Below, one piece after another: positions 20,341 to 26,661 of a DNA stretch of 40,359 nt. Source of the stretch: Candidatus Heimdallarchaeota archaeon (GTDB taxonomy: Archaea; Asgardarchaeota; Heimdallarchaeia; Heimdallarchaeales; Heimdallarchaeaceae); NCBI GenBank assembly GCA_016840095.1, contig JAEOSZ010000028.1:1-40359 (forward strand), given 5' to 3'. Within the stretch, counting starts at the first letter, position 1, and each line of letters begins with the position of its first letter. A program made the position numbers and the translations under genes. The notes below the pieces were generated by a model that was given only the letters and a program-made list of their open reading frames with translations, had not been told where the DNA came from and did no database searches.

Positions 20341-20739
20341 ATGAGTGAACGAGAAGTGAAGTATTATAAAATGCTAACAAAATTCTATAATACTAAAATG
20401 AAAAACTTTGATGTTAAGGAAGATCTTGATGAACTAGAAGGAAAGAAAGTCTATTTCAAAATGAAAAATGCTGAAATCAATAAGGAGATTCAAGAACAAT
20501 TGCTAAAAATCCGAAAAATGAAAGAAGGAGGAAAAGGCGACAAAGCATTAAAGGAAGAAGCTAAACTCAAGAAGAAAGAATTAGCAATTGCTGAGAACAA
20601 AAAGAAGATTCAGAGTATTATGACAAAAATAGATAAGAAAAAAGGAGAATTTCAAAAAGTTAGAGCTGATATGGAAAAAGCAGAACGAGAAATTAAAACT
20701 GAATTTTCAGATAAATTTACTGAGTTATTAACTGAGTAA
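20341..20739 (+). CDS. Lys/Glu-rich coiled-coil (helical hairpin) protein
   Basis: All-helical composition with a central GGKG turn; directly upstream of the E2. Confidence 0.75.
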   Translation: MSEREVKYYKMLTKFYNTKMKNFDVKEDLDELEGKKVYFKMKNAEINKEIQEQLLKIRKMKEGGKGDKALKEEAKLKKKELAIAENKKKIQSIMTKIDKKKGEFQKVRADMEKAEREIKTEFSDKFTELLTE

Positions 20740-20864: not shown

Positions 20865-21431
20865 TTGGTTCAAACCAGACAAAATATCACTAAATTAAAG
20901 GTGACTAAAATTAGAAAACAAAGAATTATCAAAGACTATGATGCACTTAGAAAACTCCATAAGGAAGGTGTGATTAATCAAGTAAAAGCATTTCCAGGAA
21001 AGAAGAAATCAATGGAACACGTAGCTGTTGGTTTTGTTGGTCCAAAAGGAACTCCATATGCTGGCGGAAAATACAAATTAGAGATTTTATATGGTAAAAA
21101 CTATCCGTATAAACCTCCATACGTTCGACTACATACACCAATTTGGCATCCAAATTTCTGGCCAAATCCCAAAGAATATCCAAATAAAAGAAACATCTGC
21201 TTAGCTTTGGTTGATAATGAATTAGTTGGAAAACATGATGGATGGTCTCCAGCTAAGAATATTACTACGGTTATATACTCAATTCTTGCTATGTTCAATG
21301 TTGAAGGAGCTTATGTTAACCCTAAGGACGTATTTAACAAAGAAGCTGCTTTAGAATTCTTGAATGATAAGAAGAAATTCATTAAAAAGGCTTCAACAAT
21401 TAGCAAGAAATACGCTAAATCCTTCTGGTAA
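20865..21431 (+). CDS. ubiquitin-conjugating enzyme E2 (UBC fold)
   Basis: GPKGTPYAGG, YPYKPP, WHPN, catalytic Cys (NICL, codon 21198-21200), WSPA, NKEAA. Confidence 0.95.
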   Translation: MVQTRQNITKLKVTKIRKQRIIKDYDALRKLHKEGVINQVKAFPGKKKSMEHVAVGFVGPKGTPYAGGKYKLEILYGKNYPYKPPYVRLHTPIWHPNFWPNPKEYPNKRNICLALVDNELVGKHDGWSPAKNITTVIYSILAMFNVEGAYVNPKDVFNKEAALEFLNDKKKFIKKASTISKKYAKSFW

Positions 21432-21458
21432 AATAATAAAATAAAGAAGTGAGCTTTA

Positions 21459-22178
21459 ATGGAAGATGAAAATGATTTTCCTGAGCAATATAAAGTGTTG
21501 CTCAAAAAAATAGAAGCTTTAGAAAAAGCATTAGGACTTAAAGATGTTGAAGATATCCTCAAGGATAAAGTTGATGTAGAAAAAGAAATCTCCGAAGAAA
21601 CAATCACTGAGGAAGATCTACAGATTAAACAAAAGAGTGAGATAGTGATTTCACCTAAGGCATATCTTAAACTAGCTAAACATGCACTAACTTTCGCAAA
21701 TAAAAATATACCAAAGAAAGATTGGGTAGAAGTCATTGGATTACTTACTGGGAGAATAAGACATGAAGATACACCACTTGAGCAGATTTTTGTAGAAGAT
21801 TATTGGCCAGTTGACCAGGGAGATGCAATTAGTGTTGAAATTGTTGATCAAAGGATTTTTACAGAGATTTTTAACAAAAAAGACCAGGACCATTTCATTA
21901 TAGGCTGGGCCCATTCTCATCCAAGCTACTCTCCTTTTCTAAGCGATGATGATTTTCGAACACATCGTAGATATCAAACCTTTTGGAATAAATCAATAGC
22001 TGTAGTTCTTGATCCTCTAATGATATCACCAAAGAATTTTGGAGTAGGGGTTTTCAGAATACATCAAGATAAGAAATCTTACTATGATTTAACAGTGGAC
22101 ATAGATGGTTTGAGCAGTGAAGCAAATTATGAATCTATCAGTCTTTTCATGAAAAATAAGCAAGAAAATGATTCGTAA
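21459..22178 (+). CDS. JAB1/MPN+ (JAMM) metalloprotease, Rpn11/CSN5-like deconjugase
   Basis: EVIGLL and GWAHSHPSYSPFLSDDD (intact E...HxH-x7-S-x2-D). Confidence 0.95.
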   Translation: MEDENDFPEQYKVLLKKIEALEKALGLKDVEDILKDKVDVEKEISEETITEEDLQIKQKSEIVISPKAYLKLAKHALTFANKNIPKKDWVEVIGLLTGRIRHEDTPLEQIFVEDYWPVDQGDAISVEIVDQRIFTEIFNKKDQDHFIIGWAHSHPSYSPFLSDDDFRTHRRYQTFWNKSIAVVLDPLMISPKNFGVGVFRIHQDKKSYYDLTVDIDGLSSEANYESISLFMKNKQENDS

Positions 22179-22202
22179 AGTAAAAAGAAAGAAGGGCTAT
22201 AC

Positions 22203-23315
22203 TTGGAACTAAATAACATTAAGACATACTTAGCAATCGCAATAGTAGGATCAACTGTAGGAGTGCTGTATGGAGCAATTGAAAAAGATGTACCAAGAAC
22301 ACTGACTATCTTTTTCATAACTGTGTATGCTGTTATAGCCTTACGATTCATATTAGAAAGAAGACATTATAAGAAACATAAGACAATTCTTGCAAGTACT
22401 CAATTCTTGATATTGCCATTCTTGATTATGTTAATGGGAAACTATATTTCCCCTATAGCTTTCACCTACGAGATATTCGGAATAACCTCAGGGGGAGGTT
22501 CATTCTATTCTCCTTTCAATCTAATCTCAATATCGTTAATACTTCCAGTAGTTATTCTCTCAGTTTACTTTGGAAATTACTATTCAGGCAAATGGCCAGC
22601 AATTGCCATTAATAGAAAAGTAAGAAAAGGAAGAAAAATTCCCTTCTTGATACATACACTTTATGTTGCGATTTTCCTGTTAGGATTTTTCATAAACTGG
22701 CAAATTGATTTTGTATGCTTAATATTTGTTATTCTGTATATTGTGTTCATCTTCAGATACTTCATAGTAGTATATGCTGTGAAATCTAATCAACAAGTTA
22801 GTGTATCTGCCACCAGACGTTCTACTACAGCTAGATCCACTCGCTCATCAACATCAACAAGAAGAACAACTTCTTCTTCAGCAAGTAGTTCTCGTTCATC
22901 TTCAACTAGAACAACTCGACCTACTTCAACAAGAACAACAGCTAGTAGAACAACTCGATCCTCAAGTGTAAGAGTCGATCCAGGGATAGATGTAAGAACA
23001 GCAAAGACTAAAACTACTAAGAAAACTTCAACAACTAAATCTGTTTCAAAAAGTATATTCCCAATAGGAACTCCGAAGAAAGACGAGATGAAATGTATTA
23101 TCTGTTATATGGATTTTGATAAAAAAGATAAGAGAAGAATAATTTTGTGTCCAAATTGTCGTTATCCAGCTCATGAAGATGAATTCATAAGTTGGTTTAA
23201 GACATCAAGGCTTTGTGCTAGATGTAATCAAACAATTTCAACTAGATATGTAAATAACCCTAAATATCGAATAAGTATAAGAATTTATATTGAAAAAGTG
23301 ATTGAGAAGCTATAA
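22203..23315 (+). CDS. 6-TM membrane protein with S/T/R-rich linker and C-terminal RING-variant finger (putative E3 ligase)
   Basis: CIIC-x14-CPNC-x4-H-x2-E...W-x6-CARC at 23094-23225; located in the E2/JAB cluster. Confidence 0.85.
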   Translation: MELNNIKTYLAIAIVGSTVGVLYGAIEKDVPRTLTIFFITVYAVIALRFILERRHYKKHKTILASTQFLILPFLIMLMGNYISPIAFTYEIFGITSGGGSFYSPFNLISISLILPVVILSVYFGNYYSGKWPAIAINRKVRKGRKIPFLIHTLYVAIFLLGFFINWQIDFVCLIFVILYIVFIFRYFIVVYAVKSNQQVSVSATRRSTTARSTRSSTSTRRTTSSSASSSRSSSTRTTRPTSTRTTASRTTRSSSVRVDPGIDVRTAKTKTTKKTSTTKSVSKSIFPIGTPKKDEMKCIICYMDFDKKDKRRIILCPNCRYPAHEDEFISWFKTSRLCARCNQTISTRYVNNPKYRISIRIYIEKVIEKL

Positions 23316-23388
23316 AAATTAGTGTAGCCAATTATTTAAAAACTGTAAAGTTATACGCATGATGAACCATATAAACTAGGATGATAAA

Positions 23389-23976
23389 ATGGCAACTTGG
23401 AAACAATTATCTGCTGCATTCTTACTCTCTCTAACATTGGTAGGAGTATCAATCTATTTCTTCATAGAAGATAATGATTTCCTTGGAAAAGTATTCATAT
23501 TCGCAGCAATATTTGCCTTTCTAACACTTTTCGTAATTTTCAGGAGCCTGTTTTATCTAAAGCATAAAGCAACTTTTAATGAAGTATTTTTTGTTTTCAT
23601 TGTTCCACTTATACCTGTTCTTCTAATTCTAACTCAGGTATTGCTAGGAATTTATGATTCTTTCATCATAACAACAGTAGAAATAACTCCAGATTTTCCA
23701 ACTTACTTCTTTTACATTAATGCAATGGATTTTGCTCTATTACCATATTATATAGTAAGCAACTTCTTGATATTTAGAACATTCATCAGATATCCATTTA
23801 TTAGAATGAAAGGAACAAGTGAAAAAGGAGCTCCACCTAAATTCTTCGGTTTTCTGGTGATGTTTATTATTCCTGCAGTATATATTCTAACCTCATGGTT
23901 CTATTTTGAAAATCTATTCTTGGTAATCTTTGGAGGAGTTTACTTCTATTCAGCACTGTTAATGCTGTTTGTCTAA
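23389..23976 (+). CDS. 6-TM membrane protein, RING-less paralog of the E3 membrane domain
   Basis: Collinear shared motifs with 22203..23315 (IE, YxKHK, N...LP...S, [WY]PxI...KG). Confidence 0.75.
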   Translation: MATWKQLSAAFLLSLTLVGVSIYFFIEDNDFLGKVFIFAAIFAFLTLFVIFRSLFYLKHKATFNEVFFVFIVPLIPVLLILTQVLLGIYDSFIITTVEITPDFPTYFFYINAMDFALLPYYIVSNFLIFRTFIRYPFIRMKGTSEKGAPPKFFGFLVMFIIPAVYILTSWFYFENLFLVIFGGVYFYSALLMLFV

Positions 23977-23988
23977 AAAATAAAATAC

Positions 23989-24699
23989 TCATTTTGGTTT
24001 CTTTTGCTTAGGTTGCTTTGTTTGTGAAGGGTATTTCTGAGTAGGTATTTTTGATTTAGGTATTTTGTCTTGAATAATTTCTTCTATTTGAGATGCAACA
24101 GGAGATGCTCTTTCTTTCTTCTCTTTCTTCTCTTCTCTAGGAATAGGTTTTGAATCCATGCTTTCTATTTCAGAGAATTTATCTTTGTCACTTGCTGGTG
24201 GAACTTCCTCTTTTTTCTCTCTTTCTCTTTTCTCCACAGCCTTAGATTCCATACTTTCTACTTCTCTAAATCGTTCTCTCTTTGGAATTACTTCTTCTTT
24301 CTTATCTTTAGTTTTAGACTTCTTCTCTTCAGGAACATATTTTAGATCTTTAGTTTCTTTGATTTTATCTTGTTTTGGAATTTTTGACTTTGGAATCTTC
24401 TGTTTAGGAATACTTGAGCTTCTTCTAGATGTTTCTTTAAATTGCTCTCCCCTTGGTGCTTTTTCCTGAATTTTTGCTTTTGGTATCTGAGAACTACTTT
24501 TTATGCTAGTTGATTTTTTCATTTGTGATTTTGTTGGAATTGAACTTGCTCTATCCTTTTTTTCTTTTTTAGGAGGGATTAAATTTTGCTCATCTATTCT
24601 TTGTTTAGGTATTTTCTGTTTTGGAATTTTTGAATCTGATGGATACTTCTGTGAAGGAACCTTTGATGAGATGTTTTTCTTCTTCTTTTTGTTTGACAT
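23989..24699 (-). CDS. Lys-rich intrinsically disordered repeat protein (IPK/SxIP repeats)
   Basis: 236-aa ORF with KIPKQ/KIPKS repeats, QKYPS twice, FxExESMxSK twice. Confidence 0.75.
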   Translation of the reverse strand: MSNKKKKKNISSKVPSQKYPSDSKIPKQKIPKQRIDEQNLIPPKKEKKDRASSIPTKSQMKKSTSIKSSSQIPKAKIQEKAPRGEQFKETSRRSSSIPKQKIPKSKIPKQDKIKETKDLKYVPEEKKSKTKDKKEEVIPKRERFREVESMESKAVEKREREKKEEVPPASDKDKFSEIESMDSKPIPREEKKEKKERASPVASQIEEIIQDKIPKSKIPTQKYPSQTKQPKQKKPK

Positions 24700-24954
24700 A
24701 TGTAAGTCATATCCATTTATTGCCTTTCTTCTAGTTGTTCATTCCTCGAAATACCTCGAATTTCAGAACTTCTGTTTCTCTGTTCTAAGTGCTTTTAAAT
24801 ATGGTTTAGTATATCTAGTTAGTATTTCTATATTTACATTACTATTTTGCCCCTTTAGAATACTAAAGAAAAATACTTTTTATAGCGAAAAACGGTAGTT
24901 TTTTAATAGCCCTTAACAATATAGATAAATTGTAATAAACAAGGAATGGTTATT

Positions 24955-25302
24955 ATGAGCGAAGAATTTGAAGAACTATCTTTCGATGAAGAAGAAGAGG
25001 AATTTGAAGAAGAAATAATTTCTAAAACTCCTGCAAAAGAGAAGACACCAGGTGGTAAGAAAATTAGTGTTTATTTCCAAAGCACTATAGGACCATCACC
25101 AAAGCAAGAAAAACTAGTTGTTGCTACAGATGCACCAATAAATGACATCAAATACACTGTTAGTCAAATATTTGGGCTACCAGCAGATGAATTTCATTTA
25201 TCACATGCAGGTAGAACCTGTGATCCAGATGATGTCTTGGAAGATTACGGAGTTGAAGATGGAGATACCATTCTACTTATCCCAGTATCAACAGCAGGAT
25301 AA
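24955..25302 (+). CDS. ubiquitin-like modifier with acidic N-terminal extension, ending ...IPVSTAG
   Basis: beta-grasp pattern IKYTVSQIFGLP...LSHAGR...LEDYGVEDGDTILL; C-terminal Gly; adjacent to E1; alternative start 24946. Confidence 0.9.
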   Translation: MSEEFEELSFDEEEEEFEEEIISKTPAKEKTPGGKKISVYFQSTIGPSPKQEKLVVATDAPINDIKYTVSQIFGLPADEFHLSHAGRTCDPDDVLEDYGVEDGDTILLIPVSTAG

Positions 25303-25317
25303 ATAGAAATCAAAGTC

Positions 25318-25354
25318 AGAGAAAGTATTTCTCTTTCTCTTTCATTCATTTTTC
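25318..25354 (+). terminator. possible hairpin plus pyrimidine tract between UBL and E1
   Basis: AGAGAAA-GTA-TTTCTCT followed by TTCTCTTTCATTCATTTTT. Confidence 0.35.
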
Positions 25355-25401
25355 AAACAAAACTTTATTTTTTATGAACTTGTGATAGAATATTAATAGG
25401 G

Positions 25402-26661
25402 ATGTGTACAATGAACGATAAACTTAAACAACAGTCGAATTTTTTCAGTGAAATATTTTCCGAAGAAGAAACCAAAAGATTTGATAGACAACTTAGATTA
25501 CCAGGATGGAATCAAAAAGCTTTGAAAGATTCTGTTGTAGTAATTGCAGGAATTGGGGGATTAGGGACTGAAATAGCCAAGAATTTGGCAATGGCAGGAG
25601 TAGGAACAATGCACTTAATTGATTTAGATATTATTGAATACTCTAATCTTAACAGACAGATACTATTTTCAGATGCTGATGAAGGAGAACCTAAATCCAA
25701 AGTAGCTGCTAGAACTCTAAAAAAAATTAATCCATATAGTAAGTATATTTGGCATTATTCAAATCTTGAAGATGTATCTCCTGAAATTTATGCAACAGCT
25801 GATTTATTGATTGCTGGATTAGATTCTGTAACAGCGAGATCTGAACTCATCAGAAGAGCTGTTCATTTTCAAAAACATATGATTGATGGAGGAACTGCAA
25901 CTTATTATGGACATGTTTACACATATTCTCCTGGAGTGAATGCGTGTCTTCAGTGTGATCCACAAACTGAAAGAGAAAGAGAAACCCTAGCAGCTTGTAC
26001 TCTAGTTGGGATACCAAGGAAGAGATCACATTGTCTACTTAAAGGACAATTGTTTTTTGAATCTAAAAATAATAGACCTCCAGATACCTCAGCTAAAGAG
26101 GAAATGTTAATCGTTCTAGATTACGCAAATAACTTGGCTACTGAACATTTCCCTGAACAAGGTCAATTTACTCTTGATGAAGTAGTAAAGATGGTTGATC
26201 AGCATGATCCAACAATCATCACAATTAATGCTGTAATAGCTTCACTTCAATCCCAAGAAGCACTGAAGATTTTACATCATGTTAAAGGAATCAAACTTGG
26301 AACAGTTAATACAGACTATGTTATTTACAACGGTTTAGTTGGGAAGTTCTTTTATCTAGAAAAACCTCCAAATAAGAAATGTGCATTATGTGGATTACAT
26401 GCTACTATTATAGAAGAAATCACGATACCTGCTACTTCAACTGTTGATATGCTTCTTTCAATCATTAAGAACAAGGGATATAGTTATGACCCTGAATATG
26501 GGCCTTCTTTCTGGTTAATCGATAAGAAAGACCCAGAAGATGTGGAATTAAATAAAACATTGAAAGAGCAAAATATAAGAAATTTTGAAACTCTCTATGT
26601 TACTGGATTGCTGAAAAACAATAAAGAAACGGATTTGTACATAAGACTTAAACTTAGATAA
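25402..26661 (+). CDS. ubiquitin-like activating enzyme E1 (ThiF family, UBA3/UBA2-like)
   Basis: RFDRQ, GIGGLG, DLDIIEYSNLNRQ, CLQC and CALC Zn site, catalytic Cys in AACTLVGIPRKRSHC, C-terminal UFD-like region. Confidence 0.95.
   Translation: MCTMNDKLKQQSNFFSEIFSEEETKRFDRQLRLPGWNQKALKDSVVVIAGIGGLGTEIAKNLAMAGVGTMHLIDLDIIEYSNLNRQILFSDADEGEPKSKVAARTLKKINPYSKYIWHYSNLEDVSPEIYATADLLIAGLDSVTARSELIRRAVHFQKHMIDGGTATYYGHVYTYSPGVNACLQCDPQTERERETLAACTLVGIPRKRSHCLLKGQLFFESKNNRPPDTSAKEEMLIVLDYANNLATEHFPEQGQFTLDEVVKMVDQHDPTIITINAVIASLQSQEALKILHHVKGIKLGTVNTDYVIYNGLVGKFFYLEKPPNKKCALCGLHATIIEEITIPATSTVDMLLSIIKNKGYSYDPEYGPSFWLIDKKDPEDVELNKTLKEQNIRNFETLYVTGLLKNNKETDLYIRLKLR

Follow-up and report, generated by a model that had tools for sequence, protein, structure and literature searches.

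We describe a gene on a contig of Candidatus Heimdallarchaeota archaeon (JAEOSZ010000028.1; the window, that is, the whole stretch of 40,359 nt analysed here) that encodes a ubiquitin-like (UBL) protein ending in Ala-Gly. By its sequence, the gene is a member of a separate, conserved pan-Asgard UBL family, which we call the AG type. We assign a probability of about 80% to the reading that the protein is a conjugatable modifier, activated at its C-terminal Gly by the adjacent activating enzyme (E1), in a second pathway apart from that of the ubiquitin ending in Gly-Gly (GG type). The following observations count for this reading: (i) membership in the ubiquitin family and a β-grasp fold, (ii) a Gly tail of ubiquitin length, (iii) the invariant end IPxSxAG, (iv) adjacency of the UBL and E1 genes and synteny of the whole enzyme set, (v) canonical catalytic families and motifs in the E1, the conjugating enzyme (E2) and the JAMM metalloprotease, (vi) tandem forms and varying C-terminal extensions, (vii) a separate GG-type UBL that has an E1 and an E2 to itself and a different phyletic pattern, and (viii) the published activity of the homologous Caldiarchaeum operon.

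The AG-type gene and its family

We confirmed the open reading frame 24946..25302 on the forward strand, in which the codons GCA GGA (Ala-Gly) stand directly before the stop codon TAA. Translation most likely starts at the second ATG (24955), giving 115 amino acids (aa), because nearly all orthologues begin with MSEEFEEL or a close variant and AAGGA lies 9 nt before this codon. An earlier note on this DNA had pointed to an acidic run (EEFEELSFDEEEEEFEEE), a segment LEDYGVEDGDT and the end ILLIPVSTAG-stop, all of which are present. The number of homologues, 168 in one search and 275 relatives in species-representative genomes, is far more than expected by chance.

The word-indexed search yielded the 168 homologues at E ≤ 1e-3, labelled Heimdallarchaeota, Kariarchaeaceae, Hodarchaeota and Promethearchaeota. 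The scan of species-representative genomes, with its 275 relatives or loci, selects by the C-terminal motif, and its loci are therefore no evidence that this motif is conserved. Motif conservation was judged from the word-indexed search and from an unbiased, exhaustive hidden Markov model (HMM) search of 1.84 billion representatives, in which every strong single-domain match, even a very divergent one, ends in IPxSxAG with an invariant Ala. Across 59 aligned members the C-terminal L-x-I-P-x-S-x-A-G is invariant (I109, P110, S112, A114 and G115 in 59/59, 115-aa numbering), and no part of the protein is more conserved in the family than its last nine residues; other invariant positions include the hairpin T-G-P, K66, T68, F80, S83, G86, Y98 and G103. 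A C-terminal Gly-Gly is not present: the penultimate Ala occurs in 59/59 members and in the divergent representatives. Conservation of the AG end in orthologues, a check set by the earlier note, was found in all sequences seen, including the divergent matches of the unbiased search.

An AlphaFold model built from the 59-sequence alignment comprises a disordered N-terminus (residues 1–30; predicted local distance difference test (pLDDT) 45–54), a β-grasp core (residues 36–110; pLDDT 89–95) and flexible last residues. The N-terminal tail is conserved though disordered. Its median length across the family is 35 aa, with a net charge of −9 in the acidic part and +3 in the basic part. The acidic start reads M-S-[ED]-[ED]-F-[ED]-[ED]-[LF] and the second part [IV]-K-S-K-T-P-A-x-S-K-T-P-x-G-x-K; column conservation in the SKTP motif is 92% (S), 98% (K), 92% (T) and 98% (P), and that of the Phe is 100% where FE[ED][LF] is present.

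The AG family occurs in 123/301 sampled Asgard genomes. It was found in 22/28 genomes of the window's own taxonomic family and in 9/11, 18/21, 60/68, 4/5 and 5/7 genomes of others; with the queries used, it was not found in three further families (0/76, 0/19 and 0/11). Genomes of the largest AG-bearing family (60/68) often hold 3–5 copies.

Several loci carry more than one gene or an unexpected label. In many Loki-type loci (L048, L050, L052, L054-L058, L063, L065, L067, L068, L070, L072, L077, L079, L082-L084, L086) a second AG-type paralogue with a much longer acidic tail and the usual end IPAS[IV]AG lies ~2.3 kb upstream of the operon copy. Two Heimdall-labelled contigs have two AG-type UBL genes back to back (L013:1038-1930 and L035:5851-6670); in both, the second copy is without the SKTP motif, and that of L013 ends in IPFSTAG. 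A contig labelled Candidatus Nanopelagicaceae bacterium (L066) contains a complete Loki-type UBL-E1-E2-JAMM-RING operon, and a contig labelled Thorarchaeota (L030) a Heimdall-type copy (83% identity). These two cases look like errors of binning or labelling, not transfers.

Placement within the ubiquitin family

A phmmer alignment matches residues 59–112 (118-aa numbering, from the first ATG, in this paragraph) to ubiquitin 17–70 without a gap, with LEDYGVEDGDT on ubiquitin LSDYNIQKEST. I112 is aligned with ubiquitin V70, and the C-terminal tail therefore has exactly the length of ubiquitin's, with P-V-S-T-A-G in place of L-R-L-R-G-G, A117 at G75 and G118 at G76. K69 stands at the K27 position and S86 at that of Ile44. 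The Ile44 patch is not kept: Ile44 is replaced by an invariant Ser, and H68 and V70 by an invariant Leu and Ile. None of the usual chain-forming lysines K48, K63, K29 and K33 of ubiquitin is kept in this alignment. The β1–β2 hairpin is ~3 residues longer than ubiquitin's and bears an invariant T-[IV]-G-P.

Comparison of HMM, profile–profile, fold and tree results indicates that the AG protein is a divergent ubiquitin relative that forms a separate long-branch clade within the ubiquitin family. The window protein scores 28.3 bits on the Pfam ubiquitin model (PF00240), above the cut-off of 25.4; all 59 aligned members match this model at E ≤ 1 (best E 3.5e-10), and for all 59 it is the best match. 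The second-best Pfam match, Rad60-SLD (PF11976), lies just below its cut-off (22.8 vs 23.8 bits) and reaches E ≤ 1 in 43/59 members. We rejected membership in the SUMO family on this score, and a real SUMO ancestry is not supported. ThiS/MoaD (PF02597) matches 1/59 members (E 0.029), and a tandem protein of the family (P0121) also has one weak ThiS match; membership in the SAMP/MoaD group, which the earlier note had listed among the results that would count against its claim, was rejected.

Searched against solved structures, the family profile finds ubiquitin, ISG15, Caldiarchaeum ubiquitin, ubiquilin, FAT10 and FUBI. Foldseek ranks Caldiarchaeum ubiquitin first (27% identity), followed by ubiquitin, ISG15, Dsk2, SUMO1 and NEDD8, with target-normalised template modelling (TM) scores of 0.8–0.9 to ubiquitin, Caldiarchaeum ubiquitin, ISG15 and Dsk2. 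VIA-align returns the same fold set with Z 12–14, the values of 12.9–14 going with a root-mean-square deviation of 1.5 Å over 75–77 residues. By hhalign, the AG profile matches the Asgard GG type with 97.3% probability (E 2.6e-11) and eukaryotic ubiquitin with 91% (E 1e-6). In a maximum-likelihood tree of 66 sequences, which comprises only 80 columns, the AG family forms a single clade (Shimodaira–Hasegawa-like approximate likelihood ratio test (SH-aLRT) 100) set off by a very long branch, with eukaryotic ubiquitin on the Asgard GG side. The "distinct modifier class" of the earlier note thus holds as a separate conserved family with its own clade, long branch and conserved N-tail; the protein does group with the ubiquitin family, a result the note had listed as counting against its claim, but it does so as a separate branch.

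A further possibility is that the AG protein is an Asgard orthologue or forerunner of UFM1, perhaps identical with the 'Asgard Ufm1 homologues' of Köstlbacher et al. 2026; the comparisons below make this improbable. For these, we took 20 UFM1 genes from eukaryotic metagenome contigs by a short degenerate motif and checked them on the Pfam Ufm1 model (PF03671; 139 and 133 bits); the fetched sequences end in ...RDRVG followed by short tails. Between the AG family and these 20 sequences, hhalign gives 14–16% (E ~0.002). The alignment is co-linear and covers the whole core over 79 columns with one gap, placing LLIPV on RLIPR and TIGP on TSDP. The IP-x4-G spacing and the Pro-containing hairpin to which the earlier note had drawn attention are therefore in register with UFM1, but at a probability of 15.7% the match is statistically weak. 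Also in favour of such a kinship, the AG HMM gives UFM1 9–11 bits, whereas the UFM1 HMM gives ubiquitin −1, and a Ufm1 cluster was the first named eukaryotic family in language-model features once ubiquitin and SUMO had been removed (0.83, a lead only).

These values contrast with the 97% and 91% obtained against the GG type and ubiquitin, and the GG type itself matches UFM1 nearly as well (11%, E 0.0027). The Pfam Ufm1 model has no match at E ≤ 1 in any of the 59 members, none at E ≤ 10 anywhere in the genome to which the window belongs and none above cut-off in the 301 Asgard genomes; together with the low profile–profile probability, this led us to reject UFM1 membership. UFM1 is not among the 50 best matches of Foldseek or VIA-align, which include ubiquitin, ISG15, SUMO and FAT10, an absence that does not exclude UFM1. 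The enzymes encoded beside the gene also differ: the E1 resembles UBA3, UBA2 and UBA1 and not UBA5, the E2 is a canonical UBC protein with HPN and not UFC1, and the protease is a JAMM enzyme and not a UFSP-type cysteine protease. A real UFM1 ancestry is not supported by these results. On these profiles, the resemblances to UFM1 are real features but provide no evidence of kinship beyond what the two Asgard types have in common.

Köstlbacher et al. 2026 (PMC12962969) report Ufm1 homologues in nine Asgard clades, with matches described as 'not full-length' or as having 'multiple hit regions'. Partial and multiple hit regions would fit the fused and tandem AG proteins described below, and these homologues could be the AG family under another name; the text of that paper gives no accession numbers.

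Both Asgard UBL types match UFM1 weakly (hhalign score 21–24), whereas no such match is seen for eukaryotic ubiquitin (score 11, probability 0.2%, E 0.25). Asgard UBLs may be bridging sequences between ubiquitin and UFM1.

Operon, maturation and a second ubiquitin system

The UBL, E1, E2, RING protein and JAMM are all encoded within 20865-26661 of the window (Table 1). The best solved relatives of the E1 are UBA3, SAE2 and UBA1 (E 1e-31 to 1e-29), with UBA5 the weakest listed (1e-10). Those of the E2 are UBE2T, UBE2L3, Rad6 and Ubc9, and that of the JAMM is the Caldiarchaeum Rpn11-like protein 6fju (E 1.1e-12). The JAMM is a predicted deconjugase and, in orthologues with C-terminal tails, also a predicted precursor-processing enzyme.

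Table 1 Features of the AG-type gene and of the surrounding locus (window coordinates)
Feature	Position	Strand	Remarks
AG-type ubiquitin-like modifier gene	24955..25302	+	115 aa; upstream ATG at 24946 would give 118 aa
Disordered N-terminal tail, ~35 residues	24955..25059	+	acidic block MSEEFEELSFDEEEEEFEEE, then basic block IISKTPAKEKTPGGK with conserved SKTP / KTP motifs
β-grasp core	25060..25284	+	extended β1–β2 hairpin (STIGP); invariant Lys at ubiquitin K27; invariant Ser at ubiquitin I44
C-terminal tail P-V-S-T-A-G	25285..25299	+	terminal Gly, predicted adenylation/thioester site
Stop codon	25300-25302	+	directly after the C-terminal Gly codon
Cognate E1-like activating enzyme	25402..26661	+	Pfam ThiF E = 1.6e-52; CxxC pairs, Cys-containing insertion, C-terminal β-grasp-like end
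E2 conjugating enzyme, UBC fold	20865..21431	+	Pfam UQ_con E = 8.8e-26; HPN and catalytic Cys
JAMM/Rpn11-like metalloprotease	21459..22178	+	Pfam JAB E = 1.7e-12; intact HxHx7SxxD
Polytopic membrane protein with C-terminal RING-like zinc finger	22203..23315	+	candidate ligase (E3); RING matches weak
Second membrane protein	23389-23976		between RING protein and Lys-rich gene
Lys-rich protein	23989-24699	opposite to UBL	adjoins the UBL gene
Coiled-coil protein	20341-20739		part of the surrounding locus

We compared the gene context of relatives by tblastn with the window proteins. The E1 gene lies directly downstream of the UBL gene in nearly every related locus bearing the operon, synteny between the E2 and the UBL extends across Asgard lineages, and the membrane RING protein is syntenic with the operon in Heimdall-, Hod- and Loki-type loci. 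The order UBL-E1-E2-JAMM-RING occurs in Loki-, Hermod- and Hod-labelled genomes, and dozens of related loci keep the set in synteny. The genus of the window has the rearranged order E2-JAMM-RING-transmembrane protein-(Lys-rich)-UBL-E1, and some AG-type UBL copies stand alone.

The spacer of ~100 nt between UBL and E1 (25303-25401) is T-rich with several oligo-T runs. Such a sequence is in line with an archaeal terminator or attenuator by which the modifier could be expressed more highly than the E1.

The ThiF/MoeB-type adenylation domain of this E1 would also suit a sulfur carrier, or a dual-function protein of the MoaD, ThiS, Urm1 or SAMP type, at whose C-terminal Gly the E1 makes a thiocarboxylate, and the single weak ThiS matches noted above point the same way. 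The ubiquitin HMM as the best match of every aligned member, an E2, a RING protein and a JAMM that would be superfluous for sulfur transfer, and the lack of any rhodanese domain on the operon E1 in a Pfam scan leave very little room for this explanation, the least probable of those considered. A third, MoeB-like ThiF protein elsewhere in the genome argues in the same direction. This protein (contig C14:30629-31336, −) has the highest ThiF score of the genome, 246 bits, and from its sequence is probably a MoeB/UbaA-type enzyme for sulfur-carrier UBLs.

The AG gene of the window ends directly after its Gly codon, without a propeptide. Among cluster representatives 41/120 end at AG and ~77/120 carry 1-14 residues beyond; among the copies in species representatives, 70/104 end at AG and 34/104 have 1-7 further residues. 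Some close relatives of the window protein have no tail, others a tail such as K, C, I or KF after AG. From this variation it follows that tails are easily acquired and lost, and this in turn implies a constant trimming activity. Tandem poly-UBL proteins exist as well, with three units in P0121 (three Pfam ubiquitin domains) and two in P0122, joined directly at ...IP[HF]S[TQ]AG. Each unit has its own acidic and SKTP tail, which begins right after the preceding AG. The position of the next unit's acidic tail directly after AG indicates that AG is the cleavage or processing site and that the N-tail is part of the mature unit. The earlier note had proposed a modifier made in mature form that the JAMM only deconjugates. 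This applies to the gene of the window but not to the family, in which 34/104 to 77/120 proteins have tails and tandem genes occur. In Caldiarchaeum, the processing of pro-ubiquitin and deconjugation are both carried out by the Rpn11-like enzyme (PMC5654768, PMC6043591).

Longer proteins that end in an AG-type UBL (P0173, P0202, P0257, P0146, P0156, P0157, P0162, P0183, P0193, P0212, P0249) have as N-terminal partners a HerA-like ATPase (one), CDC48_N with VWA (two) or a zinc-ribbon (CxxC...H)/coiled-coil region (a recurrent group). They may be putative fusions or gene-calling run-ons.

Good sequence and fold matches to the UBL domains of Dsk2 and ubiquilin, and a surface made unlike ubiquitin's by the Ser at Ile44, would be in line with a non-conjugated adaptor or shuttle such as Dsk2, Rad23 or ubiquilin, in which the C-terminal Gly has no chemical role. 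We consider this very unlikely: conservation peaks in the last nine residues, the reading frame ends at the Gly or few residues after it, the UBL gene stays beside the E1 gene across the phylum, and units are arranged head to tail as in polyubiquitin.

A second, GG-type ubiquitin system is present in the same genome. Its contig C118 encodes a 78-aa ubiquitin ending in RTKGG-L (L001:1483-1719, −), adjoined by a 334-aa E1 (L001:340-1344, −) and a fragment or start of an E2-like gene. Between the E1 of the AG system and that of the GG system, identity is 39% in the adenylation half, and beyond the Cys region the two diverge. The GG-type HMM gives eukaryotic ubiquitin 52 bits, the AG-type HMM 24 bits. 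The GG type occurs in 126/301 Asgard genomes in a pattern unlike that of the AG type: 28/28 genomes of the window's family have it, as do 17/19 and 10/11 genomes of two families in which the search gave no AG type, and with the queries used it was found in 0/68 genomes of the largest AG-bearing family. HeimAB125 ubiquitin binds the UEV domain of ESCRT-I (PMC9192718). V45 of the GG type corresponds to the residue mutated in that study, and the published Heimdall ubiquitin therefore appears to be of the GG type, not the AG type; Heimdallarchaeota AB_125 also has the AG type (L012).

The preferred reading, a conjugatable AG modifier, would operate as follows. The adjacent canonical-type E1 would adenylate the C-terminal Gly115 (115-aa numbering) and hold the modifier as a thioester, from which the UBC-type E2 of the operon would take it over. 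The membrane RING protein would direct it to target lysines, probably at the membrane, and the Rpn11-like JAMM would remove it again. In the window organism translation would yield the mature modifier directly; many relatives would first need the JAMM or another protease to trim the tail or cut tandem units after AG. Separation from the GG system is probably kept by the penultimate Ala, the IPxS tail, the Ser in place of Ile44 and the acidic and SKTP N-tail, and the conserved SKTP motif may serve as a docking, modification or chain-building site.

Four points weigh against this reading. (i) The evidence for this family comes from genes, alignments and models. (ii) To our knowledge, every UBL that pairs with a canonical-type E1 ends in GG, and efficient activation of an AG end is an assumption. 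(iii) The RING matches of the candidate E3 are weak and all lie below Pfam cut-offs. (iv) We infer both the role of the N-tail and the insulation from the GG system.

Comparison with known systems

Asgard ubiquitin-like operons are a main line of evidence for the origin of eukaryotic protein tagging, and the biochemical work that we found in the literature used GG-type ubiquitin only. Among the sampled genomes the AG family and the GG type are equally widespread, and with the queries used the AG type is the only one found in the largest AG-bearing group. The AG system pairs a canonical-type E1 with a non-GG end, replaces the Ile44 patch and keeps, within its disordered tail, a short motif that is strongly conserved; we know of no eukaryotic canonical E1 that pairs with a non-GG end. 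If the two systems are orthogonal, several parallel UBL pathways predate eukaryotes, and the two would form a simple natural pair for asking how the final two residues of a UBL are recognised by E1s and JAMM proteases. A wider picture, which we hold to be improbable as a whole, would place two chemically insulated pathways in Heimdall-group Asgard archaea, the GG type tied to ESCRT and the AG type with its own enzymes. In that picture UBL diversification of the Ub/NEDD8/SUMO/UFM1 kind would have begun before eukaryotes, the AG type could be a surviving relative of the lineage from which a non-ubiquitin eukaryotic UBL such as UFM1 arose, and the SKTP tail would be a regulated docking or chain-building site.

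Asgard ubiquitin-like operons have been reported since 2015-2017 (cited in PMC5654768) and NCBI labels AG proteins 'ubiquitin-like domain-containing protein'; the kind of system is therefore already known. An incomplete literature search returned no description of an Ala-Gly-ending Asgard UBL, of an invariant AG end with a canonical-type E1, of the tail motif, of AG tandem or fused forms, or of two separate systems in one genome.

The operon of Candidatus Caldiarchaeum subterraneum (PMC5654768, PMC6043591) is a working E1/E2/RING cascade with the same five components in one locus, ubiquitin, E1, E2, a small RING protein and an Rpn11-like JAMM. Its ubiquitin is the top structural match of the AG protein and its Rpn11-like protein the best solved relative of the JAMM, and its removable precursor tails have counterparts in AG orthologues. 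Unlike the Caldiarchaeum system, the AG system ends in AG and not GG, has a conserved N-tail of 35 residues and a longer β1–β2 hairpin, and its RING domain forms one protein with a polytopic membrane domain, where Caldiarchaeum has a small soluble RING protein; the window gene, in addition, is without a propeptide. ATP-dependent lysine conjugation by E1, E2 and E3 has been shown only for the Caldiarchaeum and Helarchaeial GG-type systems (PMC5654768; 10.1101/2023.07.25.550441).

The Asgard GG-type ubiquitins (HeimAB125 and Odin, PMC9192718; Helarchaeial pro-ubiquitin, bioRxiv 10.1101/2023.07.25.550441) have the fold and Pfam family in common with the AG type, and the two are found together in Heimdall-group genomes, each accompanied by an E1 and an E2 of its own. 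The GG type differs in its length of ~78 aa, the lack of an N-tail, the end RT[EK]GG, the hydrophobic V45 at the Ile44 position and its grouping with eukaryotic ubiquitin.

UFM1 (PF03671), when processed, has like the AG protein (...STAG) a single terminal Gly after a non-Gly residue, with I-P five residues upstream and a Pro-containing β1–β2 hairpin of equal length. The two differ in that no significant sequence or profile match connects them, and UFM1 employs UBA5 and UFC1 where the AG system has a canonical-type E1, a UBC E2 and a JAMM protease. SUMO (PF11976) likewise has a flexible N-terminal extension before the β-grasp; the AG protein, in contrast, is without a GG end and its tail has its own acidic and SKTP pattern, which we do not know from SUMO. 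As in polyubiquitin precursors, some AG members are head-to-tail repeats of two or three units joined at AG (P0122 and P0121). Unlike in polyubiquitin, each AG repeat unit includes a long N-tail, and the gene of the window is a single unit.

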